A stretch of DNA of 64,000 bases from a virus, in IMG/VR virus record IMGVR_UViG_3300005098_000013, positions 14,082-78,081 of that record; one strand, given 5' to 3'. Below, one piece after another: positions 7,995 to 61,028 of the stretch; the first letter of the stretch is position 1, and each line of letters opens with the position of its first letter. The notes under the pieces are model-generated. The model worked only from the letters and a program-made list of their open reading frames with translations. It had not been told where the DNA came from and did not search any database. Position numbers and translations under genes: made by a program.

Positions 7995-9542
7995 TTATCC
8001 TATTAAACAAACCTTACCTTCTTCCCTCTTGATTCTCTTCTGCTTCACTAGCCTCCCTATAAGCTCCTCAGACTTTCCATATTGCAAACCAAAGTCAAGC
8101 AGCTCATCTTTCAATTCAATCTCTCCCATTTCACCTGCTTCCAAAATTCTGACCACCTGCTGCTCTTCTGCACCTCTCGAAATCTGAGTTCTCCATTCCT
8201 TTGCAACATTCATAAGCTTCTGGAGTTCAGGTGTAATGTCTACCTTCAAAACCGAACCAAAATTAGTTGTTGCAATGGTATAGCCAATCCCAAGCCTCTC
8301 AAACAACGGCTCAATATAATGCGGCACTTTCAGCGTATCAATGCTTTTCATAAACTCATCAGTAAACTTTACACTTCTTAGTTCATCGATTCTTTTCATG
8401 ACATCTGTTACATCCCAGCCTATCTTCTTTAGCATTCCTATATCCCCTCTTACTCCTTTGCTGTTCCTCCTACACCACTTTAACTTTTCCTTTTCTGCAA
8501 CTGACGGAATAAAGTTCACAAAGAAAAACCTACGTCCTAATCCAGAGGACAAGTCAAACCTTGTTGGTTGGCTTGCTGCAAACAATGTGATATCAGTGTC
8601 GTAGCGTATCTCTCCCGCAGCTAGCCTCTTTACCAAATGCCCCGAATCCAAAGCTGTAAGCAATGCATTGTCCAGATTGGAGGAATGTTCTTGCTTCATT
8701 GCCGTTGTCAACGCCGAAAACTCCTCTATCCCCACGATGTAATCTGCATAATCATGCGCGGCTCCGTACGTAATTATTGGCTCGCCGCTATCATCTGTAG
8801 CCCTAATTGTCCCGGTAAAGCCTGCCTCAGTTAAGTTGCCGCTATAGGTTGTCTTTAACTCCGTGCCTCCTAGCGCGCTTGTTGGCCCACTTAGCAACAC
8901 TTTCAAGATGAATGATTTGGAATTATGCACTACCAGATTGTTTGCAATGTAGTGTTCCTGAGAAGTTGTGAAGTCAACAGCAGGTCCTTGGCGATACATC
9001 TTTGTTCTTTTCGTAACATGTGCTGTTGTATAGCCGAGATACATTGGTTTTTTCTTCCATGTCTGAGATTCATGAACCTTCAGTTCATTAGGTGTAAAGG
9101 CAGTCACTATCTGGTCCTTTAGCGTAAGATCTTTAGCATGTTTCCATCCATTTTTGGTTAAAACCCGATGTTGTCCCGAACATTTTAGGCCATGCGGCAG
9201 TTCATAATAGTCTACATTACTGCGCGTCTTATTCAGAACTATATTTGGCTTGCCATTGATTGATGCTAACCTGTCTCCTACTCGAACGTCTACTGCAGCT
9301 TTGTGAATTCCACTTTCCATAAGAACAGTTGTAGTTGGAGCAACGCAAAAACCTGGTGGCGCAATGAAGAACATATGTATTCTTAAGTCTGGCACAGCTC
9401 CTGCTTCCATGTAAAACTGATTCTTCTTGTTTGCCAAATTTGCCAAGTGACAACACACAGCAGTAACATAGTACGGAACGAACGTTTTGACAAAACAAAT
9501 TTTCCGTGACTCGAGAAACTCAAGTACGCTCTGCATTAACAT
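7995..9542 (-). CDS. MCM-like AAA+ helicase (no N-terminal domain) with intein
   Basis: Spliced Walker A APPGF/SKS, TEAGFTG, Walker B GIEEF, LFAASQP, Arg finger GRRF. Confidence 0.75.
   Translation of the reverse strand: MLMQSVLEFLESRKICFVKTFVPYYVTAVCCHLANLANKKNQFYMEAGAVPDLRIHMFFIAPPGFCVAPTTTVLMESGIHKAAVDVRVGDRLASINGKPNIVLNKTRSNVDYYELPHGLKCSGQHRVLTKNGWKHAKDLTLKDQIVTAFTPNELKVHESQTWKKKPMYLGYTTAHVTKRTKMYRQGPAVDFTTSQEHYIANNLVVHNSKSFILKVLLSGPTSALGGTELKTTYSGNLTEAGFTGTIRATDDSGEPIITYGAAHDYADYIVGIEEFSALTTAMKQEHSSNLDNALLTALDSGHLVKRLAAGEIRYDTDITLFAASQPTRFDLSSGLGRRFFFVNFIPSVAEKEKLKWCRRNSKGVRGDIGMLKKIGWDVTDVMKRIDELRSVKFTDEFMKSIDTLKVPHYIEPLFERLGIGYTIATTNFGSVLKVDITPELQKLMNVAKEWRTQISRGAEEQQVVRILEAGEMGEIELKDELLDFGLQYGKSEELIGRLVKQKRIKREEGKVCLIG
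8922..9347 (-). mobile_element. mini-intein (142 aa) in Walker A of MCM-like helicase
   Basis: Starts CVAPTT, ends IANNLVVHN followed by Ser; no LAGLIDADG motifs. Confidence 0.9.
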
Positions 9543-12559: not shown

Positions 12560-14446
12560 ATGGGTTGGGATAAGATAAGCGGAAAAAAGGACCAGAAGAG
12601 CCCAGAAGAGAAGGATAAGGAAATAGGAAGTTGGATTACTGCACAACAGAAGATTGAGGTGTCGCCGATTAACTTGGTGGTGTACGGTTTAGATGGTACT
12701 TGTAAGAGCAGCGCTTGTATAGATATCAGAGAAGCCAACGAGATGGATAAGAAGGTGTTTGTAATTGACATAGACGGATCTGCAGCTCCTATTAAGGAAG
12801 CATATTGGAATAATGATGGGAATATAATGATAGTGGATCCAGTGGAGATAACGGTAGAAGGTGACATTGATTGGATTGCTTCATATAATAGAATTTTAGA
12901 TACTTGCAAGTGGCTACGCAAGCATGAGGTTGAGTTGAATCTAAAAGGTGTGGTATTAGATGGCCTAGACACTCTGCTTAAAATATGTGTGGCAGGAGAC
13001 ACTACTATTTATCCGATGGGTTTGCCGCCAATGAAAATTTCGGAATATGTTGAAACTGGAATGACTGTTCCAATTATGACAAGAAGCGGATATGAAACAC
13101 CTTTGCGAACTTTTAAGTTGAAATCCCAATTAATAAAAATAGGCTATGCTTCAGGAGATGAGATTTGTGTAACACCGGACCATCCGTTGCTTGGTACTAG
13201 GGAATATTGGAGCAAACTTGAATTTATACCAGCTTCTGAATTGCAAATCGGTATGAGGTTAGCGGAAATCATGTATGGCCCACAATTTCCATGCTATGGT
13301 TATTCTGCAGCAAAGGCAAAATTTATAGGTATGATGGTTGCGGAAGGGTCAATGACACGCCACTATTCGCCCAAAATTTCAAATAATAAAATTGAACCTG
13401 TAGAATTAGCGCTTAAAGAAGCTTTCCCAGAATGTTATCTTAAACGAGATAGCAAAAATCAATATTCAATTAACTATAGAAAAAACAAAGATGACAAACA
13501 TAGAAAAAACCCGATGAGAACAGAATTGGAACAATTGAAACTTTGGAATTCATATAGCCATACTAAATTTATCCCTGATGTTATAAAATACGGTCCAATT
13601 GAGACAATATCTGCTTTTTTTGACGGATATATTTTTGGTGACGGGTGGCAAACCAAAACAAAAACCGGAAAAAGAATAGGTATGTATACAGTTTCAAAGC
13701 AGCTTGCAGAAGACTTAAGGTTTATTTTATGGAGGCTTGGCAAAAGAACAACTTTATATGTAAACAGATATCACAATGAAGTGGGAAGCAATAAGATGTT
13801 TAGCGATTATCAAGCGAGAATTGGATACGGTATTAGTGTTGATGAACCGGAAATTGCAAATGTCAAAGGTGACGTACGTCTTAAACCCATAAAAACAATT
13901 GAAAGGCTGTCTGGTCTACATGATGTATATGACCTTCAAATGCCATCTGGTAATTTCATAGCAAACAGAATTGTAAATCACAATTGCGAGTACAAAATGA
14001 AGGTAGAAGATCTCAAGGTTAACCCTGCAGCAAGAGTGACCGATTTGTGGTCGTGGCAATTTCGCAACTCTGCTTTCCTTTTGGTAGTGAAGCTCATTAA
14101 AGGTCTTAAGTGTGATAGGCTTTATACGACGCACTTAAAGGAATTGAAAGGATGGGTACAAGAGTCAAAAGGCAAAACTCTAGCCACTACTGGATATGTG
14201 CCAGAATATGAAAAATCAACGCCAAACTTAATGTTCCAAAAATTAAGTGCAACAAGAAATGATAAGGGAAAAGTTGTGGAGTGGAAGGTAAAGGTTGAAA
14301 AGAGCAAGACTAACAGTGCGCTTGAAGGCAAAGAGTATGAAGTGCTTAGGGTGGATCATGCTAAGGATGAGGTTAGTTGGCATGGCATTAAGGAATTTTT
14401 GAGGGAATGCAGACATAAAGAGGCAGGAAGAAATGAGAGGGTGTAA
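12560..14446 (+). CDS. P-loop ATPase (AAA_24/Sak4-like) with LAGLIDADG intein
   Basis: Walker A variant GLDGTCKS, VIDID, Walker B VVLDGLD. Confidence 0.75.
   Translation: MGWDKISGKKDQKSPEEKDKEIGSWITAQQKIEVSPINLVVYGLDGTCKSSACIDIREANEMDKKVFVIDIDGSAAPIKEAYWNNDGNIMIVDPVEITVEGDIDWIASYNRILDTCKWLRKHEVELNLKGVVLDGLDTLLKICVAGDTTIYPMGLPPMKISEYVETGMTVPIMTRSGYETPLRTFKLKSQLIKIGYASGDEICVTPDHPLLGTREYWSKLEFIPASELQIGMRLAEIMYGPQFPCYGYSAAKAKFIGMMVAEGSMTRHYSPKISNNKIEPVELALKEAFPECYLKRDSKNQYSINYRKNKDDKHRKNPMRTELEQLKLWNSYSHTKFIPDVIKYGPIETISAFFDGYIFGDGWQTKTKTGKRIGMYTVSKQLAEDLRFILWRLGKRTTLYVNRYHNEVGSNKMFSDYQARIGYGISVDEPEIANVKGDVRLKPIKTIERLSGLHDVYDLQMPSGNFIANRIVNHNCEYKMKVEDLKVNPAARVTDLWSWQFRNSAFLLVVKLIKGLKCDRLYTTHLKELKGWVQESKGKTLATTGYVPEYEKSTPNLMFQKLSATRNDKGKVVEWKVKVEKSKTNSALEGKEYEVLRVDHAKDEVSWHGIKEFLRECRHKEAGRNERV
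12986..13984 (+). mobile_element. intein (333 aa) with LAGLIDADG homing endonuclease
   Basis: Starts CVAGDT, block B VTPDHP, FIGMMVAEG and FFDGYIFGDG, ends VYDL..NFIANRIVNHN followed by Cys. Confidence 0.93.
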
Positions 14447-16325: not shown

Positions 16326-16526
16326 ATGATGAATGCAATCTATTACTGCCCGAAATGTGGTTCTGAAGATATAGAAGTAGTTTGTTTGAACCCGCCTAAA
16401 CCAGATAGAATTTCAATAGATGATTTAGCAAATGGTTTAACTACTTCAATACCAGCAGTTGCCAAACGTTATGTATATAGAGCAAGGTGTAAAAAATGCG
16501 GATATGAAAGGGAGTTTGTACAATGA
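16326..16526 (+). CDS. Zn-ribbon protein
   Basis: CPKCGS ... CKKCG. Confidence 0.6.
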   Translation: MMNAIYYCPKCGSEDIEVVCLNPPKPDRISIDDLANGLTTSIPAVAKRYVYRARCKKCGYEREFVQ

Positions 16527-18916
16527 GTGAAGTATATAATCTTTTTTCGAGTTACTATTATGTGGCTCATGGAAAGCCAGTTATAGTCTTGAAAGCGAGA
16601 GATAGGTTTGGTAGAAGGAAGGTATTCTACGTTCGTAACTTTGTTCCATATTTTTATGGAGTGACAGCTGATGGTAACTTCCGCATGTTCGATGGGGAAT
16701 CCGCAAAGAAGATCGAGGTTAATTTACCAGGTGACGTGAAGTGGCAAAGAGGGTTGTTTGCAAAAACTGGCGAAGCAGATGTGCCATTTTCGCAACGTTA
16801 CCTTATAGATGCTGGGATAACGTGTGGCTTTAAGCAGGAAGGCGATAGATTTGTGCCTGCCGAAGAATTAGATGTTAAACCCAGGACTCTGTTTATTGAT
16901 ATAGAAGTGGAAGCGTTCGAAGGTGTACCGGATTCCAAGATTGCAGCAGAACCTGTGTATACAATAGGCTGCTGGGATTCTTATAAGGAAGATTTTGTCC
17001 AGTTTGTGGCAAAAGGTCTTGACGAAGCATCTCAAAGAGAGTTACTATTAGAATTTTTTGATTATTTTAAAGAAAGAGATTTCGACTTAATAAGTGGTTG
17101 GAACGTTTTCTTTGATGTAGATTATCTCATATCGAAGGCAGAGGCTGTACATGCAAGGTATGATAATAAACTTGGGAGAGTTAATAGAGGCGAAAGGTGG
17201 ATTGATATAGCAGGTTGTGAAGTTTTCGACTTGCTACCTGCTTACAAAAAGTTTTTCCAGCAAACAAAATTCGATTCATATGCATTAGATTTCATCTATC
17301 ATAAGGATTTCGATAAGGAACTACTAAAATATGATTACAGCACAACTGGCTTCGATCAAATAGATTGGATCTGTGAATGCAACAAAACTCACGTAATGGC
17401 ATGTGCAGAATTAGACAAGCGTTGGAACTTGATAGGTTTGTTCGACCAGATAAGGAGGTTGAATGGCTGCACATATAGGCAATCTCTCACAGCATCTTCT
17501 TATGTAGATGTATCGCTGCTCCGAAGAGCCCATGAAAAGGGTTTTGTGTTGCCAACTAATGTAGGCAGAGACGAAAAGAAACCTGATTTTGGCGGGGGCT
17601 TTGTATTAGAACCACCCAAAGGTGTACACAAGAACGTAGTGGTTTTAGATTTCAAGAAGATGTATCCTTCTATTATAATTGGACATAATATGAGCTGCGA
17701 AACTATCAGTAAGGTTCCGATAGAGGATGCGTATGAGGTTGACGGCGTCTGGTTTAAGAAAGAACCGGTTGGTATAATGCCTGAGATGATGGTTGAATTC
17801 ATTGAAAGAAGGAATGCCGTAAAGAAAGAAATGAAGAAGTATGAACACGGAACGCCGGAATTTGAGAGGCTTCACGCAGTTCAGTACGCTTTGAAGCAAA
17901 ACGTCGATAGCGTCTTCGGGATTAATGCTTTGCCTGCTTTTAGAATGTATGAACCTCTTATATCAAAGTCTACAACGTTTGTAGGCAGAAAGTTCATTAA
18001 GAAGGCAATAGAAACTGTTGAAAGGAACGGATACCAAGCCATTTACACAGACACCGACAGTGTAATGTTCTCTGTAGGAAACACAGACAGTGACAAGGAA
18101 GCGAGGAAGCTGTTGATGAAAGTCGGAACGGAGATGGAAGGGGTTGTGAATAAAGGGCTTGAAGAAATGAGAGTAGAGCTCGGACTAGCATATCCGATTG
18201 AAGTAGATTTCGAGATGGGCTATGGTACAATTTTGTTTAAGCAAGCTTCAAGTAGCTTTAAGCAATCAAAAAAGTTTAGAACTGGCAGGAAGAAAAAGGA
18301 GAAGGTGGCTAAGAAGCGGTATGCTGGGAGAGTGTTAATAGAAGATAAAAAAGAGGTTGACTTTATTAAGATCAGAGGCATGGAGACTAGGAGGAGTGAT
18401 TCGTCAATTGTGACGAGAGAGATACAGAAGGAGTTGTTCAGGCTTATTTTGTATGGGGCTAGTAGAGGTGAGATAAAGGAGTTTCTGAGGGGCCAGGCTA
18501 AGAGGTTCAAGGAGTTGCCTTTGGAAGAGTTTGGTATACCTAGAAGGCTGGGTATGCCTATTGAAGCGTATAGTAATCCTGCAACTGTAAGAAGCGTTAC
18601 ATATGCTAATAAGTATCTGGGAGAAGATATAAAAGAAGGCCAACGTTGTTATGATGTACTCGTAAAGCGAATTACTAAACCAGAGTGGCCACAAAAAATA
18701 GAGATTAGAACTAAGAGTAGTAAGATGAAGATGTATCCTGTAGATCGGGTTTCACTAACCAAAGCAGTGCCGGAAGGAATTGTGATAGATTGGGATAAGC
18801 AAATTAGGAAAATTTTCAGAGACAAAATGGAGCCTATACTCGATAGTGCAGGAATTAGTTGGACAGAAGTCTTTGAATATCACAAAGCAACAACATTAAA
18901 GGAATGGGGCGCCTAA
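16523..18916 (+). CDS. polB: family B DNA polymerase
   Basis: Exo I DIE, SGWN..FD; pol motifs DFKKMYPS, KQNVDSVFG, YTDTDS, KKRY. Confidence 0.96.
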   Translation: MSEVYNLFSSYYYVAHGKPVIVLKARDRFGRRKVFYVRNFVPYFYGVTADGNFRMFDGESAKKIEVNLPGDVKWQRGLFAKTGEADVPFSQRYLIDAGITCGFKQEGDRFVPAEELDVKPRTLFIDIEVEAFEGVPDSKIAAEPVYTIGCWDSYKEDFVQFVAKGLDEASQRELLLEFFDYFKERDFDLISGWNVFFDVDYLISKAEAVHARYDNKLGRVNRGERWIDIAGCEVFDLLPAYKKFFQQTKFDSYALDFIYHKDFDKELLKYDYSTTGFDQIDWICECNKTHVMACAELDKRWNLIGLFDQIRRLNGCTYRQSLTASSYVDVSLLRRAHEKGFVLPTNVGRDEKKPDFGGGFVLEPPKGVHKNVVVLDFKKMYPSIIIGHNMSCETISKVPIEDAYEVDGVWFKKEPVGIMPEMMVEFIERRNAVKKEMKKYEHGTPEFERLHAVQYALKQNVDSVFGINALPAFRMYEPLISKSTTFVGRKFIKKAIETVERNGYQAIYTDTDSVMFSVGNTDSDKEARKLLMKVGTEMEGVVNKGLEEMRVELGLAYPIEVDFEMGYGTILFKQASSSFKQSKKFRTGRKKKEKVAKKRYAGRVLIEDKKEVDFIKIRGMETRRSDSSIVTREIQKELFRLILYGASRGEIKEFLRGQAKRFKELPLEEFGIPRRLGMPIEAYSNPATVRSVTYANKYLGEDIKEGQRCYDVLVKRITKPEWPQKIEIRTKSSKMKMYPVDRVSLTKAVPEGIVIDWDKQIRKIFRDKMEPILDSAGISWTEVFEYHKATTLKEWGA

Positions 18917-19528: not shown

Positions 19529-20242
19529 ATGGCTAAGAAGATAAGCAAGTCGATGCTGATGGCATATGATGAGCAAAGCCGCTTTGGTTGTGGATACAAA
19601 TATTACCTAACTTATGTAAAAGGTATCAGGACGAAGCCATCTGGAGTAATGTATGACGGCATAAGGTTTCACAATGCGGCGGCTAAGTTCTATGATAAGC
19701 TAGACTTAAGTAAAATAGGAGAAGCAAGCTTCTGGAACGTTTACGAGTATTTCAGAACTCTTTATCCAAGAGGCAGACAGTATGATTATCTCGCAGAATT
19801 TGAAGCAGATAGGTATCTTATATCAGCAGAACATTTCATACCAGTGCTGATAGAAGAAACGATCGAGGACGATGAGAGGAAGGGAATTGTAGACAGAGTA
19901 GAGGAACTAAGCGAAGGCGAGTTAATGGTTACGGAGTTGAAGCTTTCGTTTAAGAAAAAAGAAAGTTTAGATGATGTAAGGTTTGAGTTAGTATTCTATG
20001 CAGATCTTTTAAGAAAGCACGGTTACAACGTAGCCTATACAAGTGTCTTCTTCGGAAGAGATGGGATGTACGAAATGTGGAAACTGAGAGATTATGATTT
20101 CGAACTAATGGAGGAAAGGGTAGAGAGAATTCTGGGGGGTATTGAAAGAGGAGAGTTTGAGAAGGTGCTCGATGAGCGATGCTTGAATTGTCCATTCCAG
20201 GCACATTGTCTTGAGGGGAAAAGGTTAGAGGAGGTTAGGTAG
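19529..20242 (+). CDS. Cas4-like PD-(D/E)XK exonuclease
   Basis: N-terminal Cys, GIVDR, ELK, C-terminal CLNCPFQAHC Fe-S ligands. Confidence 0.85.
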   Translation: MAKKISKSMLMAYDEQSRFGCGYKYYLTYVKGIRTKPSGVMYDGIRFHNAAAKFYDKLDLSKIGEASFWNVYEYFRTLYPRGRQYDYLAEFEADRYLISAEHFIPVLIEETIEDDERKGIVDRVEELSEGELMVTELKLSFKKKESLDDVRFELVFYADLLRKHGYNVAYTSVFFGRDGMYEMWKLRDYDFELMEERVERILGGIERGEFEKVLDERCLNCPFQAHCLEGKRLEEVR

Positions 20243-48169: not shown

Positions 48170-49006
48170 TTAAGCATGTACACCTGTGATTTCGATTCCT
48201 GCGTCTGCCTGCACTACTTTAGGCTCTGCAAACTTTGCGATTGCGTAGCCAGTGTAGAACGCAGCATTGCCTGAATACTTCTGAACCATGCTTGGACCGT
48301 CTCCGAGAACAAGAGCTGGCGCCTCTGTGGCAAGTACAAAGCAGCTGGTATTTGGTGTAATGGCTACATCCGTAAGCACCTTAAGTCCGCAATAAGTAGG
48401 AACCTCGCCCTTGACCATCATATTGCGTTCCATTTGCTTTCTTACATAGTCGTTACTCACCAAATCTGCCCACACTAATGGATTCATTGCCAGGTAAGTA
48501 GGCTCGTAACCCTTATCCAGGTTGATCATAGTAGCAATCGCTTCCATTACATCGTCTGAAGGGTCGTTATCTCCGCCCCAATCAGAACCTGTTTGGTTTG
48601 CAAAGCCAGTTGGAAGCACACTTGCAATGTCTTCGTTTTCCATCTGCGCGATTGCACCGGCCGCGTCCTTGACGTTCGAGGCTAAGATGTCACCTACGAG
48701 ATTCTTTTTCTTTCCTGCCTCATAGCTGATTGCTATGTGTACAACGTTCTTGCCGTACGCTTCAAGATCGAAATGAACCCATGTATATGCCTCCTTGCTC
48801 AGCTCTGCTTCTTTGAGTGGCGGTACATGCTTGATACCAGCCAATCTAGTCGCAACTGGCATGTCACCTAAAAGGTCTGGCATTTTTATGACTCTGCAAA
48901 GCTCGCGTAGTTTATACTTGTTTCTCGCTAGCCCAAGAACTTCAGACACCACTACTTTGGCCTCTATGTCTTCTATATCCGCTACATCTATAAATCCTGT
49001 TGGCAT
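48170..49006 (-). CDS. major capsid protein (HK97 fold)
   Basis: Position; YEPTYLAMNPLVWADL, TYCGLKVL. Confidence 0.8.
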   Translation of the reverse strand: MPTGFIDVADIEDIEAKVVVSEVLGLARNKYKLRELCRVIKMPDLLGDMPVATRLAGIKHVPPLKEAELSKEAYTWVHFDLEAYGKNVVHIAISYEAGKKKNLVGDILASNVKDAAGAIAQMENEDIASVLPTGFANQTGSDWGGDNDPSDDVMEAIATMINLDKGYEPTYLAMNPLVWADLVSNDYVRKQMERNMMVKGEVPTYCGLKVLTDVAITPNTSCFVLATEAPALVLGDGPSMVQKYSGNAAFYTGYAIAKFAEPKVVQADAGIEITGVHA

Positions 49007-49019
49007 TTCTTTTTTCCTC

Positions 49020-49418
49020 CTACTTTAACAACAGTGGCACAGTTCCACTTGCAACCAATGAAGTTGTGTTCATTGCATAACCCACGACAGATCTTGTTAG
49101 CGCTACTGAATTGATAGTGACTTTCTTGACCTTTCCAGCTGCTGCACAAACTAGTTCGTCCATAAAGTTGACCGGAAAACCTGACTCAACCGTTACTTCA
49201 GCGACTCCTTTGATAAGCCCGCGCATATCCCGATTTGTTGCAGCTGCAGTAACTGTGTCCATTGCAATGGCAAACTTGCCCTCATCAGCATCATCGACTG
49301 GTTCAAAGCCGTTACCTTCTTCCTTTATGACTTGACCTTTAGTCACTAGCGTTGCGATTTTTGCATCTTCGTTCTTTACTAATATATCATATTCCTGATA
49401 CGGATCTCCTACTGCCAT
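49020..49418 (-). CDS. capsid decoration/cement protein
   Basis: Position; DELVCAAAGK, VVGYA. Confidence 0.6.
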   Translation of the reverse strand: MAVGDPYQEYDILVKNEDAKIATLVTKGQVIKEEGNGFEPVDDADEGKFAIAMDTVTAAATNRDMRGLIKGVAEVTVESGFPVNFMDELVCAAAGKVKKVTINSVALTRSVVGYAMNTTSLVASGTVPLLLK

Positions 49419-49420
49419 TT

Positions 49421-49981
49421 TTACTCATCTCCTAGAGGATCTTTATGCCCAAACCACTCTTGCCTCAACTTCTGCTCTTCCGTGAGTTCGCTGCTTCCAG
49501 AAGCTGACAACTTAACCTTTGCTTCTGCTTTCACTTCTGCATCTACTTTCTCGAGACGTTCAGCATCAGAAAGCAAGATCTTCAACTGTGTCTCGTCAAG
49601 TTTCTTAAAGTCTTCGACTGCTATGCTTTTGTCCTTTTCTTCTATGAGACCTTTCTTTGCTCTTAGCTCAACTATCTGTGTTGCTAAGTCCTCTCGTCTG
49701 CTTAACATCATTTGGTTTACTTTTTCCCGCAATGACCGATTCTCAGCAGAAAGCGTTTCCATCTTCTTATTTACATCTTCTTTCGGCTTATCCATATCCT
49801 CCTCCTTCTTTTCGCCCTTGTTTTCGGTGTCGCCCTTGTTTTCAGCACTTGCCGGTGCACCTTCCTTATAACCTTTTGGCGCCAACACAATATACTCAAT
49901 CTCAGAACCATCGATTTTGAGCGGCTTGTCCTTAGCACTTGGCGGCATAGGATAAGATTCTTCTACTTCTGTTTCTGTCAT
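49421..49981 (-). CDS. capsid scaffolding protein
   Basis: Charged coiled coil between protease and capsid genes. Confidence 0.65.
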   Translation of the reverse strand: MTETEVEESYPMPPSAKDKPLKIDGSEIEYIVLAPKGYKEGAPASAENKGDTENKGEKKEEDMDKPKEDVNKKMETLSAENRSLREKVNQMMLSRREDLATQIVELRAKKGLIEEKDKSIAVEDFKKLDETQLKILLSDAERLEKVDAEVKAEAKVKLSASGSSELTEEQKLRQEWFGHKDPLGDE

Positions 49982-50273: not shown

Positions 50274-53200
50274 CTAAGCTGCTGGCTTTTCTATTATACA
50301 CTCTGCACATGCTGGTGCTTCCGTTAGGGTAAGCTCCACATACTCTTTAATCTGTTTCACTACCTTCTTGGTTCTGTCTACATTAAGCAGCGCATCTATA
50401 GAGTAACCCTTTGCTTTTTTCTTTGCGAATTCAATGCCTTCAGGATCTGTAATTAGCGAGACCACTTCTATATTATCACCGTTTAAGGTTACTTTAGTCG
50501 GCTTTCCAACTTCCTTTTCGCGTATGTGTTCTATGCAGACTGGAATATCCATGATTCTTTCAGGCCTGTCCCTGACTACTTCAGGCGGAAAGTACCAATT
50601 GTTCCAAACACCGGAGCTAAGAGCAATGCCTGGCACTTCAAGACCTTCTTCGGTTTCTTTGAACGGTGAAGAGAATGGGATAAAAGACATTTGGACAAAT
50701 TCTTCTTCAGATTCTGTAGAAGGCACCTCTTCAGAACGTTCAAAATTCCACACTCCTTGTGGTGTAGAACGCTTCATAATCCACATGCCTTTGAGACCAG
50801 AAGCAAAGTTGAATTTCTTGAAAAGCTTATCATCCTGAAGTATATTTACTTTGCCCTTCACATGTGTGATAAGAAAAGCAGGTGTGTTTGGTTTTTCATT
50901 TTCAGGTGTGCCTGGTTTTAATTCGACCTCTTTCTTGAATTCCTTCCAGAATTGCGGGCGCAACACGTTTGTTTCTTCACGAGCGTTCATAGATGATTCT
51001 TTTAGCGGGTCTTTATCTAGCCTGAATTGCATCTTTCCAATCTTCAAGTCATACTCTTCATAAGTCGGGCCTTCACGAACTATATAAGGGCCTCGATACC
51101 ACCTGTGCTGAATTATGAAATCCTCAGCAGCCTCTTGCACTTCCTTTTGAGTAAGCAAATCTATTTCTCTTTCAGAAAGTTTACTCTTAATTTCATTCCA
51201 AAGCTTTTCGTACGTTTCAGACTTCTCTTCTGATACACTATATACCATCTTGCCTGCTTGGATACGCCTTGCAATTTCCTTGTATATCTTGACTGCAACC
51301 CCTTCAATTTCTTCTTTTGTGTACTTAATACTTTTGTGTGGATCTAAAGCAGTAGCATACCAGCCTACTGAAATTCTTGCATCGTCCATAAGTTGTTGAT
51401 TAGTCATGTGTTCTGGATCATATGTGCTTATATCTTTGATAAGCTCAAGCCTCTTTTCCTTGAAATACTCAATGAGCTCTGCTCTTTTTTCCTGTGCAGC
51501 ATCACCGCTTGATTCCCAGAACCTTAACTCCTGTGGCACCTTATTTTTGATTTTTTTAGGTAAAGCCGAAATTCCGTGAGGTGGTAGCCAACCAGTTCGT
51601 CGAGCTCTTGCAGAAAGAACATAAGGGGTTTGATCTTCAGGCTTTGAGAAGAACCAAATGAATGCTGGACGCTTATTATATGGATTAGGAATGAGAGTTG
51701 CTACAAAACGGCCTTTGTATTTACGACCATGCAAGAAATATTCTGCCATGTGTGATTTCTTAGAGCCGTGCTCAACTCTGCCTTTGTCATCGATTACAAA
51801 CACACCTTCTTTTTCCTTAGTCGCACCGACTTGTCCTTTAGGCACCGTGCCTTCAACTGTTAACCAAGGTTTGGGTTCAGGTGCTTTTTTTATGGCTTGA
51901 ACTTTGAAAAACTCATCATCCGTTTTCCACTTCGACGCGCGAACTACTTTTTTAGCTTCTGACAGGCTGTCGACATCCTCCTTGATCTCACCTTCTATTT
52001 GGTTCAGGAGAGTGAAGCCTTCGAGATGATCGTTTGCTTCCACACGAAAGTCTACATGAACTGACTTGCCTCTGAAGTGGTACTGGACCACGAAGTTATA
52101 AGTCTTCTCTTCAGACGGATACCGAGCCAACATCAGAGGTAACTTTTCACCTTCGGAAAGCTCAATGGAAGACAGGCCCTGTGATTCTTTTATTTCATCT
52201 AAAGTTTCCTGGCGCTGAAATTCCTCTTGGAGATCTTGCATTGATTCAACTTGCTTAAAACTTACATCCTTGAGAGAGTCGAGCATTTCATGAAAGTCTG
52301 TATTTATCAAAAAAGCTCTGCTATAAAGAACTACTTCCTTGATATTGTATTTCTTAGCTGACTCTTCAATAAGCACTTGCCATTCTGCCAAATTCATGTC
52401 GAAGAAATCATAGTTCTCAACTTCTACCCAACTTGGTACCAGTCCGTATTTTCTTGAGAGCACTACATAGGGAATGTTGTGAGCCTCACAAAAACTGATA
52501 AAGTTGTGAATCGGCTTTGAAGGAGACCAAAGTTGTTTTGGTGTGCCGCTACGGATTTCCTTGTTCTTTGGCGCAGCACACATAATAGCTGCAAACTTGC
52601 CTGCGGCCAACTTCTTCTCCTCAAGCAGATCTGACTTCTCTGCAATGTCTAATGCTTCTTTAGTTGTATCTGGGAAACGCTGTTGCGGGCGAAGCTCATA
52701 GAATCTGGGTTCGTAAATCCTAATTCTGTCACCTTTTTCACTATGATACCAAAAAAGAGTGTGGAAGATTACTGTAACAATATCACCCGGATTGCAAAGC
52801 GTTGCAGTATTGAACGTCTTGCCTATGTAGACATAATTGGCATCTTTGACCTTGCAGAGGTCTGCTTCCTGGGGTTGAAAGTCTGAAGTTGCTTTAAGGC
52901 CAACTTCATATACATACACACCCTTTGTTGCCGTTTCGATACGCTTAAGCACTGCAACGTGCAATTCACTTACAACCTTGTACTTGGCCCATTCACTGGT
53001 CATACCCGTGAGTGGATAAGTGGAACTCATTAGTTTGACCATTGAGCCTTCTGACCCTTCAAGCTTAGACACTCTTTCCACTTCTTTCCTGATTTCAGAT
53101 TCAGTTGTGGCAGTGTGTGAGACAAGACGGTTGAAGTGCGAAATGCTAGGTTTCGGTAATTCATCTTTGGCTTGTCCCAAGTCTATTAAATCTAAATATT

Positions 53201-53876
53201 GATGCCTGACGCGAAGTTCTTCGTTATGAAGATCGCCAATCTCGGTGTCTAAGTTATGCTTTTCTAATTTAGGGTCGCTAAAGTAAAGAATATCAAACAC
53301 ATTTGCCACAATATGTGAATCGTTCGGCTTGTCTTTCTTATTGACATAGCCTGAAACCGTTTCGCGGCCTTGATGAATTCCGTTTTCATAGCCTTCTGTT
53401 TCACTGTCTAGCAGGAACGTTTCAACCGGGATTTTTTTGAGCTGATCAACAGCTTTTGGAAACCTACTAGTTCTGTCTTCACCAGATTCTAGGAAGACCT
53501 TTATCTTGTCTTTATGCTTCCACCATAATACTCTAAGGCCATCAGCTTTTCGTTCAACTGAAACTGGACAAATAGTGCCTTTGCATGCATGTTTTATTAT
53601 ATCTAATAGGTCAGGAATGTTGTACGCTTCGTTCTGCCGGTAGCCCTTAACACCTTTAAGAGCTTGGATAGTTTGCAATGGTTTTATAGCTTTAAACGTT
53701 TCGTTCTCTTCCAAAATAAGCTGCTTTATTTCAACCCAGTCTGCTTGCGTTCCAACTGAAGGCTTTTCGATTTGCTCTTCTACAAGCTGAAGTATGTCAT
53801 CTGACTTACTTAACGTACTGGCTACTTCTGGCTTAAACCTAATACCAGCTTCCTTCAACTTGTCTTCCAAAACCAT
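50274..53876 (-). CDS. multidomain protein: ATP-dependent ligase + DUF6884-like + LigD phosphoesterase-like x2 + prohead protease
   Basis: Ligase KADG, LDSE, VFDIL, EGSMVK, WAKYK; LSRKYGLV; FVVQYH..HVDFR; protease IEH, GYSID, ELTLTEAPA. Confidence 0.85.
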   Translation of the reverse strand: MVLEDKLKEAGIRFKPEVASTLSKSDDILQLVEEQIEKPSVGTQADWVEIKQLILEENETFKAIKPLQTIQALKGVKGYRQNEAYNIPDLLDIIKHACKGTICPVSVERKADGLRVLWWKHKDKIKVFLESGEDRTSRFPKAVDQLKKIPVETFLLDSETEGYENGIHQGRETVSGYVNKKDKPNDSHIVANVFDILYFSDPKLEKHNLDTEIGDLHNEELRVRHQYLDLIDLGQAKDELPKPSISHFNRLVSHTATTESEIRKEVERVSKLEGSEGSMVKLMSSTYPLTGMTSEWAKYKVVSELHVAVLKRIETATKGVYVYEVGLKATSDFQPQEADLCKVKDANYVYIGKTFNTATLCNPGDIVTVIFHTLFWYHSEKGDRIRIYEPRFYELRPQQRFPDTTKEALDIAEKSDLLEEKKLAAGKFAAIMCAAPKNKEIRSGTPKQLWSPSKPIHNFISFCEAHNIPYVVLSRKYGLVPSWVEVENYDFFDMNLAEWQVLIEESAKKYNIKEVVLYSRAFLINTDFHEMLDSLKDVSFKQVESMQDLQEEFQRQETLDEIKESQGLSSIELSEGEKLPLMLARYPSEEKTYNFVVQYHFRGKSVHVDFRVEANDHLEGFTLLNQIEGEIKEDVDSLSEAKKVVRASKWKTDDEFFKVQAIKKAPEPKPWLTVEGTVPKGQVGATKEKEGVFVIDDKGRVEHGSKKSHMAEYFLHGRKYKGRFVATLIPNPYNKRPAFIWFFSKPEDQTPYVLSARARRTGWLPPHGISALPKKIKNKVPQELRFWESSGDAAQEKRAELIEYFKEKRLELIKDISTYDPEHMTNQQLMDDARISVGWYATALDPHKSIKYTKEEIEGVAVKIYKEIARRIQAGKMVYSVSEEKSETYEKLWNEIKSKLSEREIDLLTQKEVQEAAEDFIIQHRWYRGPYIVREGPTYEEYDLKIGKMQFRLDKDPLKESSMNAREETNVLRPQFWKEFKKEVELKPGTPENEKPNTPAFLITHVKGKVNILQDDKLFKKFNFASGLKGMWIMKRSTPQGVWNFERSEEVPSTESEEEFVQMSFIPFSSPFKETEEGLEVPGIALSSGVWNNWYFPPEVVRDRPERIMDIPVCIEHIREKEVGKPTKVTLNGDNIEVVSLITDPEGIEFAKKKAKGYSIDALLNVDRTKKVVKQIKEYVELTLTEAPACAECIIEKPAA

Positions 53877-53887
53877 CCTCTTTTCAT

Positions 53888-54178
53888 TTACTCCTGCTGC
53901 TCGTTGGGTTGCTCTTCAGATTGTTTGCCGCTTTTCAGGCCACGTTTTTCCATCTCTGCCTTGACCTTATTATGTATCTCTTCCCACTCTTCCTTGCTAA
54001 ACACCTTTGCTTCGGGCATCTTTAGATACCTAAAACACATCAGGTTTGCAGCCTTGAGCTGATCGTCCTCGAACTTACTAAAGTCCGCATCTTTGAGCTC
54101 TTCTACTTTAAACAGCGCAGCCTCTTCTTCCACTCTACTATACTTAATACCATGCTTTTTCAGTTCCTCTTCTATCAT
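53888..54178 (-). CDS. small helical-module protein
   Basis: FSKEEWEEIHNKVKAEMEKRG resembles segments of both neighbouring proteins. Confidence 0.65.
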   Translation of the reverse strand: MIEEELKKHGIKYSRVEEEAALFKVEELKDADFSKFEDDQLKAANLMCFRYLKMPEAKVFSKEEWEEIHNKVKAEMEKRGLKSGKQSEEQPNEQQE

Positions 54179-54197: not shown

Positions 54198-55751
54198 TTA
54201 AATCGCCTCCGATAATTTTTGTAATGTAGGCGAATCATCACGTTGTTCAATACTTAAGCCTTCCGTAATTCTCCTTACATCCTCTTCTGTGGCTGTTTTC
54301 TCGCGAAGAGGTAACCAAATTTCTTTGAGAATAAATGCTTGTTTCTCTTCTAGTGAACTTAGTGATTTGAAGGCGTCGACCAGAGCTTGTTTCTTCTTGA
54401 TGAGTTCTGGCGTATCTGTTTCCTTAGGAATCACTTGTCCTTCTTTAAGTTTTATTGGCTTCTCATCAGGATCTTCTGGTAAGTAGAGCTGGCCGTAGAT
54501 GCTGCTCCAAATATAGCTCATGCTGTCTACTGAATTGAAGCCGTAAAGATTTAGATATTTAAAAACATGAGGGTTTTCGACTCCTAAAGCATGGATTTCG
54601 ATTCCTTGATCTTTTATTTCGTCTAAGATGCCTAATTCTTGAAGCCGCTGCATTGCAAAGACACGTTGCGGTAAACCTCGTGAAGGGTAACCTGCGACTT
54701 GAATACTCTTCCGTCCTATGCCTATAATATCTGGGTTGAGCTTGATAATTTCTCGAATGCAAGCCTCGAACTTGAACGCCGATTGCCCCTGGCCAATCCC
54801 CATAACCTTGCATTCTGGCTTCATATTCAGAAACTCTCTCTGAGCCTTTATCGACTTCTTATCTGAGTCTATATCATACAAGAAATCCGGTGCACATACC
54901 ACATCTGCCTCTACTAGTTTGGAAGCTTCCAGTAGCTGAGATGGCGTTAGCGTTTTGTCGCTGAATGCGCCATTGTCCAGCATTACTCTTATACCAGAAG
55001 CTTTCCAAGCTTTAGCATTTTGAATCTGCTTAGTACTGAGATTGTAAGCGTTGAGCATGACGCCGTCGCAGTAGTCTAAAAGTGGCTCTTGTGCACCTAC
55101 CAGATACAAGTGGAGTTTGTGTGATTGCTCAACTCTTTCTAACGGAAGAATGGGCTGGCATTCCAAAGTTAAAGCAGGCACATGAGAAGTAACTGGACCA
55201 CTTTGAGTAAATTCCGGATTGTCATATAAGAAGTGGATGCGATCCTGAAGCTCTGGAGGAAAGAGTCTGAAAACACGGAAAGCTGTAACCCTGGCGACTG
55301 GATCGTTTTCGCTTGCTTTTATGAGTATGTCTATATCGCCTGTCGTACTGCCATGATTCACTATGCCACCAGTTAGATAGACAAAAGGATGTGCGAGTTT
55401 GACTGGTTTGATATATTGAAGTACATCATCTAAAAAAAGCATTTCCCCGTTCTCATTGTGCTGGGCTGGTTGACCATAGTCTGCACTAAGTTTGGTTGTA
55501 TCTAAGTCATCTATGTTTTGTGGGCGAATGCCTTCTTTTGCCATCGCTTCCAGAAGAAGCTGATAAAGATTCCATATGTCTTCTTTACTCCAAGATTCTC
55601 CATGCTCGATGAAGCTGCCGGTACGCTTTTCAATATGCCATGCTAAATGGAGCCATGCATATACTTCTTGGAGTTCTTCTTTAGAAAGAGAGGAAACGTC
55701 TAAGTCTTTGCTAACTCGAAGTGCCCCTTCCAATGTAAGATCCGAGCTCAT
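54198..55751 (-). CDS. Pol beta-type nucleotidyltransferase fused to TGT/DpdA-like barrel
   Basis: YLTGGIVNHGSTTGDIDIL; VMLDNGAFS, APD, MGIGQG, IHALG, SVDS. Confidence 0.75.
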   Translation of the reverse strand: MSSDLTLEGALRVSKDLDVSSLSKEELQEVYAWLHLAWHIEKRTGSFIEHGESWSKEDIWNLYQLLLEAMAKEGIRPQNIDDLDTTKLSADYGQPAQHNENGEMLFLDDVLQYIKPVKLAHPFVYLTGGIVNHGSTTGDIDILIKASENDPVARVTAFRVFRLFPPELQDRIHFLYDNPEFTQSGPVTSHVPALTLECQPILPLERVEQSHKLHLYLVGAQEPLLDYCDGVMLNAYNLSTKQIQNAKAWKASGIRVMLDNGAFSDKTLTPSQLLEASKLVEADVVCAPDFLYDIDSDKKSIKAQREFLNMKPECKVMGIGQGQSAFKFEACIREIIKLNPDIIGIGRKSIQVAGYPSRGLPQRVFAMQRLQELGILDEIKDQGIEIHALGVENPHVFKYLNLYGFNSVDSMSYIWSSIYGQLYLPEDPDEKPIKLKEGQVIPKETDTPELIKKKQALVDAFKSLSSLEEKQAFILKEIWLPLREKTATEEDVRRITEGLSIEQRDDSPTLQKLSEAI

Positions 55752-57007
55752 TTTAAGCTTACCTCCATCTCATCTCCACCTGTGCTAGAAGCTGGCTTGT
55801 ATTCGTCTAACCTCCGTTGTCTTCTTGGAGACCTGGAAAGTGATGCAGGAGTTTCAGTGCCCATCAGCATTGTATCTAAGTCCAGAAGATCATATGCAAT
55901 ACGTCGGTCTATGATTTTGTTTTTATAGAGCTCATTAATCGGTGCTGCTATGTCTATGAAATCTTGTATGCTTACAGGTTTCCAAGTGTGCTTGATTCTT
56001 ACCCTATCTGATAAGCCCATCTGAGCTACAATAGGTGCGTAGAGCTGGCGTTCAATTTCCCTCTTAAGCGTTCGTTGTATTCGAAGAATTGCACCCTCGC
56101 GTAGAGCCTTCAAAGAGTACTCTAAGGATGCACGGTTCAAGCTCCGTTCTCTTCCCATCAAAGGCTTCGGGATTCCAAAATTCCCAAGTATTTCCTCATC
56201 TACATTCTGCCTTGTTAACATCAAGGATTGCAAATCTGGTGTCATATGCACCACTTGAAACTCTATGCTTTTGTTTGTGACCAAAGACACACCTGGTTCG
56301 ATGGCATCTTTAATCTCATTCAACTTAGCCTCCTCTTCTGCTTCTGTCATCATAGAAGTGTCGACCTGAGCTATGACAAACGGTGCCCACATACGCATTG
56401 CAGCCGCAAGCACGTCTTCGTCCAGTTCCATCTTTTGTTTAATTGCGGATACAATTGGCTGTATCATGGAGAGGCCTCTAGGATCGCCTTCTAACCTGTC
56501 GTTGCCTACAAAGAAGATGTCATCTGGTTTCAGAGGGTTCTCTTCGTCGTTGTTGTAGATGTAAGAGTCTAGATTCCAGTTTTCATCGAGAACTGGTTCG
56601 AGCAATGCCGATTGCAGAGGGTTTAACTTAACTGGTTCCTTCTTGGCCTTGACGATTTCAAAGCCTGCAAAGCCAAAGATTTCACGTTTAATCTCTGCAA
56701 TGTATACGACTTCGTCCAGATTGACTTTGCGATTCACCTCATCTACTTTCTTCTTGACATCCAGAAACTCTTCCGGGTCGCTATCGTCAAGGACTTCCAC
56801 CTCTGTAAAGAAGCCTCTGCTAGTAGCGAACGATGCCCGCAAGTTAACGCATTGTCTAACAAGAGAAATGGTCTTGTAATATTTGAGATAGTCACTTAAA
56901 GTACTTGAAGAATAGAGACTGCCAGTCTCCCATTCACTCCGCTTCACTTTGGGCTTGGCTTTCGAAATCCTATACAACTTCAACCTCAGGTCTTCTAATA
57001 GTGCCAT
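55748..57007 (-). CDS. portal protein
   Basis: IFGFAGFEI, PRGLSMI, FGIPKPLMG; position. Confidence 0.88.
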   Translation of the reverse strand: MALLEDLRLKLYRISKAKPKVKRSEWETGSLYSSSTLSDYLKYYKTISLVRQCVNLRASFATSRGFFTEVEVLDDSDPEEFLDVKKKVDEVNRKVNLDEVVYIAEIKREIFGFAGFEIVKAKKEPVKLNPLQSALLEPVLDENWNLDSYIYNNDEENPLKPDDIFFVGNDRLEGDPRGLSMIQPIVSAIKQKMELDEDVLAAAMRMWAPFVIAQVDTSMMTEAEEEAKLNEIKDAIEPGVSLVTNKSIEFQVVHMTPDLQSLMLTRQNVDEEILGNFGIPKPLMGRERSLNRASLEYSLKALREGAILRIQRTLKREIERQLYAPIVAQMGLSDRVRIKHTWKPVSIQDFIDIAAPINELYKNKIIDRRIAYDLLDLDTMLMGTETPASLSRSPRRQRRLDEYKPASSTGGDEMEVSLK

Positions 57008-59546: not shown

Positions 59547-61028
59547 CTACACTACGACCTTCACTATTCCTCTTGCACCGAAAGATTTGCGAAAAGCCGG
59601 AGAGTGAACGCTGGTAATTCTGGGAATTGGAGAAATACTGAAGGTGCCTGCAGCTGAAACTGCATTGGCTAAGGCATCTGCGACGTCTTTGCTACCTGTC
59701 TTTCTATGATCTACCTTAGTACCGCGAATTAGTTCCAGTTCTTTGAGTTCCTTTACCAAAATGGGGCTTAGATAGAAACTTATCATGTCACTATAGATAA
59801 GTTCCTTAAGCCTGTCGTGTTCCTTCTTCTCCGTATGGTTCTGAACCACTCTAATTCCAGCCTTTTCTATTTTCTGCAAGGTCTCAGGATAATTCCACAC
59901 ATCTGTTGTGAAGCTTACAATCCCTGGAAACCTTTCTGCTATGTCTATAATAAACTGTGCCACTTGGAACGCATCAATTTCGCGTCGCCCTGAAGGCGCA
60001 AAACGATGGACTAGGTCTACTATGCACTTATGATCACTGAAGTGCACAAGAGCCAGGCCAAAGGCATCGTTCTTCACTGCCGGATCACCTGCCAAAAAGT
60101 AGCGTTGTTCAGGAGAAGTTTGCCTGAACCATTCTGCCATGCTTCCATCAGGCAAGATGGGATCTGGCCTGAGAGGATCGATGCATTTATCTATGCTTTG
60201 CGGATCCTTGTAGTAGTTTTCTATGACTAGGCTGGGCTCTGCACCATAGTCTCTTTGAGCCATGTCGGGATTCTTTTGAAACTCAGGTTCGAGAGACTCG
60301 CGCGTGATGTTAGGGTTCACTAACCATGTAGGTAATTGATACCCCAGCATATATTCTGAATGCTTTGACATCTCATAGAGTGTCATGATTACGTCGTCTA
60401 CAGTTACTGGCGATGATATAGATACTATAAGACCTTCATTACCAAAAGTCTTTACTGACCTAGATAATGAATGATAGACATTCCAACCTGAAGCGTTGCC
60501 TTTTGTATCTTTGAACCTTGCCAGCTCATCAAAGAGAACCAGTTTTGCAGTGTGGCCTACTAAGCTTGAAGAGTTAGCGTGCGCACTTCTTATTATAACA
60601 TTGGGATCTGGAAAGATGAGTTCATTGTATCTTTCTTTACATTCACCAGTTTCGATTAGACTTTTGAAATAAGGAGAGTGATGAACCAATTCCTTGTCAG
60701 CCGCAAATACAGTATCGGACGCCTGCTCTTTTGACGTCGCGGTGTTTATGATAAAGATAGCCTGGCCTGGTGCTAAGTTATAGTGTTCAGCAGGGTTGCC
60801 AAGTTGGATTAGTTTGAATGTCTCATACAAACTAATAACTGCAGCCAACCTTGTCTTGCCACTTCTCATTCCACAAATTGCCACAAGCTCATTATAAGGA
60901 CCCTTGTAGAATTCTTCCAAAATTTCTGCTTGCTTAGGGAAAAGCTTGAACTTGAGAATGTAATCTACGAAGTAAAGAGGGTCTAAGGTTGCCTTGAGCT
61001 CCTTCCTGAAATCCGAAGTCAGGCTCAT
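59547..61028 (-). CDS. terL: terminase large subunit
   Basis: Q motif FPKQ, Walker A GMRSGKT, Walker B LVLFDE, ISSP, nuclease GDPA and KDVADA. Confidence 0.93.
   Translation of the reverse strand: MSLTSDFRKELKATLDPLYFVDYILKFKLFPKQAEILEEFYKGPYNELVAICGMRSGKTRLAAVISLYETFKLIQLGNPAEHYNLAPGQAIFIINTATSKEQASDTVFAADKELVHHSPYFKSLIETGECKERYNELIFPDPNVIIRSAHANSSSLVGHTAKLVLFDELARFKDTKGNASGWNVYHSLSRSVKTFGNEGLIVSISSPVTVDDVIMTLYEMSKHSEYMLGYQLPTWLVNPNITRESLEPEFQKNPDMAQRDYGAEPSLVIENYYKDPQSIDKCIDPLRPDPILPDGSMAEWFRQTSPEQRYFLAGDPAVKNDAFGLALVHFSDHKCIVDLVHRFAPSGRREIDAFQVAQFIIDIAERFPGIVSFTTDVWNYPETLQKIEKAGIRVVQNHTEKKEHDRLKELIYSDMISFYLSPILVKELKELELIRGTKVDHRKTGSKDVADALANAVSAAGTFSISPIPRITSVHSPAFRKSFGARGIVKVVV

Follow-up and report, generated by a model that had tools for sequence, protein, structure and literature searches.

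The window analysed here is a stretch of 64,000 nucleotides (positions 14,082 to 78,081) of the IMG/VR virus record IMGVR_UViG_3300005098_000013, which comes from an uncultured tailed virus and is 78,081 bp long, classed as linear and estimated to be 86% complete. Its minus strand harbours an uninterrupted open reading frame (ORF) of 1200 codons, P0001, in which five domains can be recognised: an ATP-dependent DNA ligase, a DUF6884 domain, two units related to the 3'-phosphoesterase (PE) of LigD (PE1 and PE2), and a predicted prohead protease at the C-terminus (Table 1). The gene is a part of the head module, which reads terL, portal gene, DpdA-like gene, gene for a protein of 96 amino acids (aa), P0001, scaffold-like genes and major capsid gene, all on one strand. 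Beyond the capsid gene, neck proteins and a tail sheath are encoded on the same strand. In tailed phages, the prohead protease is normally encoded at such a site between the portal and capsid genes; judged by its neighbours, P0001 thus occupies the usual position of this protease. Of the two small proteins encoded between P0001 and the capsid gene, the one of 132 aa matches the scaffold family phrog_673 weakly, and both are candidates for scaffold or decoration proteins. Their position is conserved in the 13 syntenic loci described below.

Table 1. Features of P0001, of the surrounding head module and of other parts of the window (positions of the window).
Feature	Position	Strand	Remarks
P0001, whole ORF, 1200 aa	50274..53876	-	single ATG-to-stop frame, stop codon included
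N-terminal segment, aa 1-59	53700..53876	-	no Pfam match
ATP-dependent DNA ligase module, aa 60-420	52617..53699	-	Pfam PF01068
DUF6884 domain (YaaA-related), aa 428-545	52242..52595	-	CAAPK at 433, LSRKYG at 473
PE1, LigD-type 3'-phosphoesterase, aa 586-800	51477..52121	-	H600, H607, D609, R611; E667, W671
Linker, aa 801-904	51165..51476	-	
PE2, second PE-fold domain, aa 905-1050	50727..51164	-	
Predicted prohead protease, T4 gp21/assemblin fold, aa 1060-1200	50277..50699	-	His1117, Ser1159, C-terminal P-A-C-x-x-C
Tripeptide in KLAAG, aa 423	52605-52613	-	candidate cleavage site at best
Tripeptide in ELSEG, aa 573	52155-52163	-	candidate cleavage site at best
Tripeptide in KLSER, aa 900	51174-51182	-	candidate cleavage site at best
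Large terminase (terL)	59547-61028	same strand as P0001	
Portal protein	55748..57007	-	Pfam Phage_portal, E 5.9e-16; PHROG portal families
517-aa protein, encoded immediately after the portal	54198-55751	-	weak queuine/DpdA-type transglycosylase match
96-aa protein	53888-54178	-	
Two small genes between protease and capsid genes	49020..49981	-	186 aa (charged, low complexity) and 132 aa
Major capsid protein	48170..49006	-	phrog_1650 major head protein, E 1.3e-12
QueC	6390-7133		
GTP cyclohydrolase FolE2	7154-7981		
515-aa ORF	7995-9542	-	sub-threshold Intein_splicing match
628-aa ORF	12560-14446	+	intein-bearing
Family B DNA polymerase	16523-18916	+	replication module
PD-(D/E)XK nuclease	19529-20242	+	replication module

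The only Pfam match of the whole protein is to DNA_ligase_A_M (PF01068), which covers aa 104-300 with an E-value of 7.2e-14 and a score of 52.4 bits (cut-off 26.2). This nucleotidyltransferase domain contains the adenylation lysine K110 in ERKADG (starting at 108), followed by LDSE (156), VFDIL (193), EGSMVK (276) and WAKYK (296). The ligase motifs I (KxDG), III, IIIa, IV and V are present, with K110/D112/G113, E159, D195, E276/G277/K281 and K298/K300 as the corresponding residues. Depending on the position, the catalytic residues are kept in 24 to 29 of the 29 ligase-bearing relatives (K110 and K298 in 27 each; G113, D195 and K281 in all). The region downstream of the nucleotidyltransferase domain (aa 300-420) is conserved among relatives without matching a Pfam family, and may be OB-like. 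In a relative with 60% identity (P0002), a LAGLIDADG intein of approximately 350 residues is inserted into the ligase at about aa 297, within motif V (WAKYK, 296-300). Inteins typically occupy functionally constrained sites. No ATP-dependent ligase other than that of P0001 is detectable in the 78-kb record.

The ligase is followed by a region (aa 425-560) whose sole Pfam match, to DUF6884 (PF21818), is below the threshold (E 0.027; 15.1 bits against a cut-off of 30). The aligned region of the relative L001 passes this cut-off with 35.7 bits, and in the ESM Atlas, DUF6884 makes up all of the nearest clusters (score 0.90). According to the Pfam curators, the family has a YaaA-related fold and the motifs CxxxK and LSAxxG (PMC11701544). 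Both motifs are found in P0001, with Arg in LSRKYG at the place of the motif's Ala. A Bacillus member of the family, YfjM, was recovered on abasic and ribonucleotide lesions (PMC11701544).

Analysis of aa 560-830 revealed the first phosphoesterase unit. Its sole Pfam match is LigD_N (PF13298), aligned over the profile positions 6-104 of 107 and also below the threshold (E 0.0041; 17.7 against 31.1 bits); the relative P0005 reaches 25.6 bits. When a profile of four family members was compared to the PDB, the only matched sequence was 3p43, an archaeal PE, which aligned in three collinear segments with an E-value of 0.28. In this alignment, FVVQYH...HVDFRVE of PE1 is paired with FVVQRH...HYDFRLE. 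In Pseudomonas LigD, the metal site and the accompanying Arg are H42, H48, D50 and R52. The equivalent His-His-Asp and Arg site (QYH..HVDFR) is present in PE1 as H600, H607, D609 and R611, which are conserved in 30 to 33 of 33 relatives. Further downstream, Pseudomonas LigD has His84 and Tyr88, both presumably essential for catalysis; in PE1, E667 and W671 are found there. Indeed, the HMMER alignment with 3p43 sets E667 and W671 of the EPKPW sequence (667-671) under the His and the Tyr of an H-P-L-x-Y segment. At position 667 the relatives have Gln or Glu, and only rarely His, while W671 is invariant (33/33). The His/Tyr replacement thus marks a whole viral PE subfamily and not the decay of one gene. 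With an invariant Trp where LigD has its Tyr, such a subfamily could have a distinct end-healing chemistry and be of use as a reagent.

The iterated profiles of PE1 and PE2 detect one another. No LigD_N match was found for PE2 in Pfam, and its assignment is based on structure: an AlphaFold2 model of aa 890-1062, built from 24 sequences, has a mean predicted local distance difference test (pLDDT) value of 86 and shows the PE beta-barrel fold. When this model was compared to the PDB with Foldseek, structures of LigD or archaeal PEs took the first six places (3p43, 2lj6, 3p4h, 3n9d and two chains of 3n9b; probability 1.0, target TM-scores 0.53-0.74), followed by unrelated folds with probabilities of at most 0.3. 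The end of the linker (aa 890-904) is helical in the same model. At the positions of the metal site, which fall in IIQHRW (921) and EEYDLK (940), PE2 has H924, E941, D943 and K945 and thus lacks the complete His-His-Asp and Arg set. Most relatives show E-H-[YW]-D-L at this site, while P0001 and its closest relative, P0030, show E-E-[YF]-D. Since E941 replaces the metal-binding His of the relatives, one metal ligand of PE2 has been lost in P0001. Of all units, PE2 is the one most tightly coupled to the protease, which also applies to minimal proteins with a length of 450-540 aa.

The C-terminal domain contains the sequences CIEH (1114), GYSID (1157) and ELTLTEAPAC (1181). A model of aa 1040-1200 (pLDDT 80) matched T4 gp21 (5jbl) in Foldseek with an E-value of 5e-5 and a TM-score of 0.67, and in VIA-align 132 of 164 residues were aligned to 5jbl_B with a Z-score of 14.0 and a root-mean-square deviation of 2.4 A. 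Herpesvirus assemblins were next best (Z 6-8.5). In an alignment of 39 divergent cargo-bearing relatives (A5), His1117 and Ser1159 are invariant, and the P-A-C-x-x-C motif is conserved as well. Based on the fold of the model, the catalytic His and Ser, the place between the portal and capsid genes and the fact that no other such protease is detectable in the record, in which the domain is present in a single copy, this gp21/assemblin-fold domain is predicted to be the head-maturation protease of the virus. Matches to the Pfam models Peptidase_S78, CLP_protease and Peptidase_S78_2 were not found in the record.

No Pfam protease family matched the protein in scans at E <= 1 and E <= 10, nor was there a PHROG protease match. 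In particular, neither Peptidase_S78 (HK97-type) nor Peptidase_S78_2 (XkdF) matched at E <= 0.1, the gp21 model Peptidase_S77 not having been searched on its own. The domain was not placed in the S78_2 family, since XkdF domains matched it only weakly in hhalign (E 0.01, probability 4%), even though the His and the G-[FY]-S sequence were aligned. An exhaustive search with hidden Markov models revealed 664 clusters related to the protease domain at E <= 1e-3. They include one group in which the domain is at the C-terminus of proteins of 450-2016 aa, and a second group in which it is at the N-terminus of proteins of 320-480 aa and is followed by sequence that could not be assigned to a family. 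The sequences of the second group resemble the classical protease-scaffold fusion. Twelve of 52 N-terminal-protease relatives (among P0033-P0120) also match Pfam DUF6582, with a best E-value of 5.7e-21.

We also considered how the protease might be separated from the remaining protein. An internal start at Met1063, which would yield a free protease, is not supported, because it is not preceded by a Shine-Dalgarno motif, unlike most genes of this window. Three L-[SA]-[AE] tripeptides are located near three domain borders (Table 1). They are partly conserved in relatives, one copy being deleted in P0002, and may be considered candidate cleavage sites at best. LSA/LSE sites are also present in the neighbouring proteins of 186 aa and 517 aa.

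These results can be compared with an earlier note on this DNA, which was made from the sequence alone. All ligase motifs quoted there, including K110, were located and are backed by the Pfam match, and so were CAAPK and LSRKYG, on which a DUF6884-like unit had been proposed. A PE unit that keeps the H..H-x-D-x-R cluster and has its downstream His and Tyr replaced was correctly read, in agreement with the 3p43 alignment, and a second PE described as degenerate proved to have the PE fold and to have lost a metal-binding His. Some units lie a few positions away from the residue numbers given, while their content was right. The term 'polyprotein' of the note implies a self-cleavage which, for P0001, is a prediction. 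The C-terminal domain had been called an HK97/assemblin-type protease. The assemblin fold is borne out, with T4 gp21 as the nearest solved structure, so that the absence of a protease fold, named in the note as a possible refutation, does not apply; the HK97 part of the name is not supported by the Pfam model.

When used as a single query, P0001 found no relatives among viral contigs, and a scan of genome contigs also yielded none. The whole protein had no matches in PHROGs, and phmmer against the PDB gave marginal ligase matches only. In 50,697 INPHARED records of cultured phages, tblastn with PE2 and the protease found no matches, and the identity of TerL to any cultured phage is at most 28%. 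In a census of the domains of 176 proteins, more than 25 clusters, formed at 50% identity and drawn from different samples, had the order ligase, (DUF6884), PE1, PE2 and protease. Further, 13 viral or metagenomic loci (IMG/VR and JGI contigs) are syntenic and show the order terL, portal gene, a gene for a protein of 451-1719 aa ending with PE2 and the protease, two to three small genes and a capsid gene of approximately 278 aa. P0002 is collinear with P0001 over the whole length. The earlier note had regarded the fusion of a ligase to a morphogenesis protease as unusual. This holds in comparison to cultured phages only, since the architecture is widespread in metagenomes and fits the concept of polyvalent proteins put forward in 2017.

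Relatives with approximately 85% identity in the protease differ from each other by whole cassettes. Both the ligase (approximately aa 55-415) and the linker together with PE2 (approximately aa 834-1055) are absent from three of them (P0021, P0023 and P0003), in which aa 1-54, DUF6884, PE1 and the protease are present. In another protein, P0022, only the protease is left (159 aa), and P0007 and P0008 stop just before the protease. From such differences between near-identical relatives, the borders of the domains can be read, and with them suitable cutting points for expression constructs. The N-terminal segment is thus retained in close relatives without ligase; in P0021, aa 1-54 match aa 1-54 of P0001 with 61% identity (BLAST). 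The start of P0001 (53796-53876, MVLEDKLKEAGIRFKPEV) and that of the 96-aa protein (53888-54178, MIEEELKKHGIKYSRVEE) look alike, and could represent a shared N-terminal tag, the BLAST E-value of 5.4 being not significant. A helical module common to three adjoining proteins of the head region was not supported by BLAST (best pair, the 1200-aa and 96-aa proteins, E 0.14).

The Pfam matches among the 39 cargo-bearing relatives comprise ligase (11), pyrimidine-dimer glycosylase (3), DUF6884 (2), LigD_N (1), RNA ligase (1) and D12 methylase (1). In L001 and L002 the order is glycosylase, radical-SAM, ligase, DUF6884, PE, PE and protease. Other ligase-PE proteins have an XkdF-type protease at the C-terminus and, in addition, metallo-beta-lactamase, 2H/LigT or Dam-type methylase domains. 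The processing of DNA damage and the healing and sealing of ends, joined to one or another head protease, are the recurring cargo theme across the family. Some relatives have two protease domains: in P0009, a protease of the present family is located at either end (aa 42-150 and 1372-1506), and P0018 combines an N-terminal Mu-like_Pro, a double ligase and a C-terminal XkdF domain.

Based on these observations, we propose with moderate confidence that the gene encodes a polyvalent phage head protein in which DNA end-healing and sealing cargo is attached to a prohead protease, the packaging, cleavage and delivery of this cargo being inferred. The protease would act inside the assembling procapsid and, since the protease must sit there, the approximately 1060 residues of attached N-terminal cargo would be carried in. 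After assembly of the shell it would cut the scaffold and probably also the linkers between the domains, and the freed cargo units would stay in the head with the DNA, from which some or all of them could exit together with the DNA at infection. Of the cargo units, DUF6884 may recognise or bind lesions, as suggested by YfjM, and PE1, with its Mn-type His-His-Asp site, may remove 3'-phosphates or other 3'-blocking groups. The ligase, possibly already adenylated, would then seal nicks or join the genome ends. For PE2, which has lost a metal ligand, a role as a DNA-end-binding or adaptor module beside the protease is more likely. The benefit could be that the incoming genome is repaired or circularised ahead of any viral gene expression.

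In line with this proposal, the cargo seems to be under selection and not decaying, because the catalytic residues of the ligase and PE1 and also W671 are conserved, and because the intein of P0002 is located at motif V of the ligase. Moreover, two protease families of the same clan, gp21-like and XkdF/S78_2, carry the same set of ligase and PE. It is tempting to go one step further and to imagine a DNA first-aid kit of the virion, composed of a DUF6884 sensor, a PE with the Trp variant and a pre-adenylated ligase, which would be freed by the protease, injected, and used before transcription for the repair of breaks and blocked ends or for joining of the genome ends. Strand breaks and blocked ends that originate within the virion or from host nucleases would be its targets. 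This more specific version is possible, and we hold it to be rather doubtful.

Several points weigh against a packaged and delivered cargo. Its incorporation, cleavage and ejection are themselves inferred, and no conserved cleavage motif was found in P0001 and its relatives, the three L-[SA]-[AE] tripeptides (aa 423, 573 and 900) being only partly conserved. The existence of close relatives without ligase implies that the ligase is dispensable for assembly and perhaps also for infection. Further, PE1 differs from the characterised PE of LigD at two positions which we take to be important for catalysis. Last but not least, to lock the sole ATP-dependent ligase of the (86% complete) record in the capsid would be awkward if replication needs it, unless delivery at entry is its purpose.

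In the main rival explanation, which we consider unlikely, the protein would act uncleaved or partly cleaved as a late DNA-maintenance enzyme in the cytoplasm, where it would clean and seal nicks in concatemers so that packaging does not stall. The fusion to the protease would then only secure late expression coupled to that of the head, and encapsidated copies would be incidental. The gene is indeed located within the late head operon and encodes the only ligase of the record, and in T4 ligase deficiency impairs the formation of DNA-filled heads, while nicks reduce the packaging of short substrates (PMC10893049). However, for mere co-expression the enzymes would not have to be joined covalently to a domain which is internal to the procapsid. 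In addition, the cargo is always N-terminal of the protease, it is swapped by cassettes like effector cargo, and the same cargo is found on two different protease families, all of which argues against this rival.

Still less probable, in our opinion, is an internal structural or DNA-organising protein, in which the PE folds, DUF6884 and the OB and nucleotidyltransferase parts of the ligase serve mainly as DNA-binding modules of an inner core that arranges or anchors the ends of the packaged DNA, and catalysis is secondary or lost. The loss of the metal-binding His in PE2 of P0001 and the tight coupling of PE2 to the protease would suit such a role. The strong conservation of the catalytic residues of the ligase and PE1 in the relatives would not, and neither would the H-x-D of PE2, which is retained in most relatives, nor the intein targeting motif V of the ligase. 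Finally, an assembly chimera or a frameshift artefact which joined a ligase of the replication module to the head protease gene, mentioned in the earlier note as an error at the junctions, is very unlikely and effectively refuted, since the junctions recur in many independent contigs, with identical domain order in clusters from different samples, conserved synteny in IMG/VR and JGI contigs, and end-to-end collinearity with P0002.

Outside of the head operon, the window contains a replication module on the opposite strand block, in which no ligase is present. Inteins are indicated in two further ORFs: Intein_splicing matches the 628-aa ORF above the cut-off (E 7.6e-12), along with LAGLIDADG_3, and the 515-aa ORF at a sub-threshold level only (E 1.2e-4, 22.3 against 35.8 bits). 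The 517-aa protein encoded after the portal gene matches phrog_887 over aa 368-467 (E 3.4e-7). Together with QueC and FolE2 in the window, its DpdA-type match points to a DNA modified with 7-deazaguanines, the putative transglycosylase being encoded in the head module. Most genes of the window have Shine-Dalgarno motifs of the GGAGG type. The coding strand is strongly purine-rich, with a GC skew of +0.25 to +0.43 and an AT skew of up to +0.22 in the plus-strand block at 10-34 kb; the sign of the skew flips on minus-strand blocks.

Among the known systems closest to P0001 are the fusions with an XkdF-type (Peptidase_S78_2) protease (P0015, P0016, P0018 and P0019), which share the homologous ligase and PE cargo and the C-terminal position of the protease. 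In contrast to these, the protease of P0001 is not detected by the S78_2 model. With LigD and the stand-alone archaeal PEs (3n9b, 3p43, 3p4h, 5dmp), P0001 has in common the ATP-dependent ligase and the 3'-phosphoesterase fold, including the H..H-x-D-x-R metal and phosphate cluster of PE1 and a PE2 model that superposes on solved PE structures. However, it contains two tandem PE units, its LigD_N score is sub-threshold, and the position of LigD His84 is Glu or Gln in the P0001 family, while that of Tyr88 is an invariant Trp. Ku was not detected in the 86% complete record at E <= 0.1, and a polymerase/primase domain was not recognised in P0001 by the Pfam scan. For these reasons, and because two positions that are catalytic in the PE of LigD are altered, P0001 is not a LigD, though it has a LigD-like core of ligase and PE.

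At the level of the protease, the closest known system is T4. Its gp21 has the same fold and a conserved His/Ser pair as the domain described here, at a sequence identity of only approximately 10-11%. In T4, the non-essential proteins IPI-III and Alt assemble together with gp21 in the core of the scaffold, are trimmed by it and are injected with the DNA (PMC9958956). The cargo of T4 is encoded by separate genes and has a short N-terminal capsid-targeting sequence, whereas that of P0001 is covalently fused upstream of the protease.

The latter design corresponds to the polyvalent proteins, for which packaging and processing were predicted by Iyer, Burroughs, Anand, de Souza and Aravind in 2017 (PMC5512222). 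Such proteins consist of two to fifteen domains, and P0001, with its five recognisable domains, resembles them in combining several unrelated enzymatic domains in one chain, in its location near the portal and terminase genes, and in the assemblin-like peptidase at the extreme C-terminus, where these peptidases are always found in polyvalent proteins (PMC5512222). It differs from them in its cargo. The themes of the 2017 paper are anti-restriction, ADP-ribosyltransferases, RNases and methylases, while that of P0001 is DNA end repair. ATP-dependent DNA ligase, LigD-type PE, DUF6884 and pyrimidine-dimer glycosylase do not appear as cargo in the text of PMC5512222, in which 'ligase' is used for RNA ligases only and 'glycosylase' is absent. 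DNA-repair cargo thus extends the polyvalent concept. While such a design had been foreseen in general terms in 2017, our literature search revealed no relevant report of this DNA-repair cargo, neither of prohead proteases with a fused ligase or PE nor of virions containing either enzyme.

The design is found widely, is coherent and lends itself to experiments, and the protease domain defines a large family of 664 clusters, unmatched by Pfam and PHROGs at the thresholds used (Peptidase_S77 not having been searched on its own). The more specific first-aid kit, if real, would be the first DNA repair pathway borne by the capsid of a prokaryotic virus. Enzymes of base excision repair are packaged in a similar way by giant eukaryotic viruses, among them CroV and ASFV. 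If the cargo of P0001 is indeed packaged and delivered, tailed viruses would join these as viruses with DNA repair enzymes inside the particle, which bears on how viral genomes survive damage by ultraviolet light, heat and nucleases, both in the environment and during entry.

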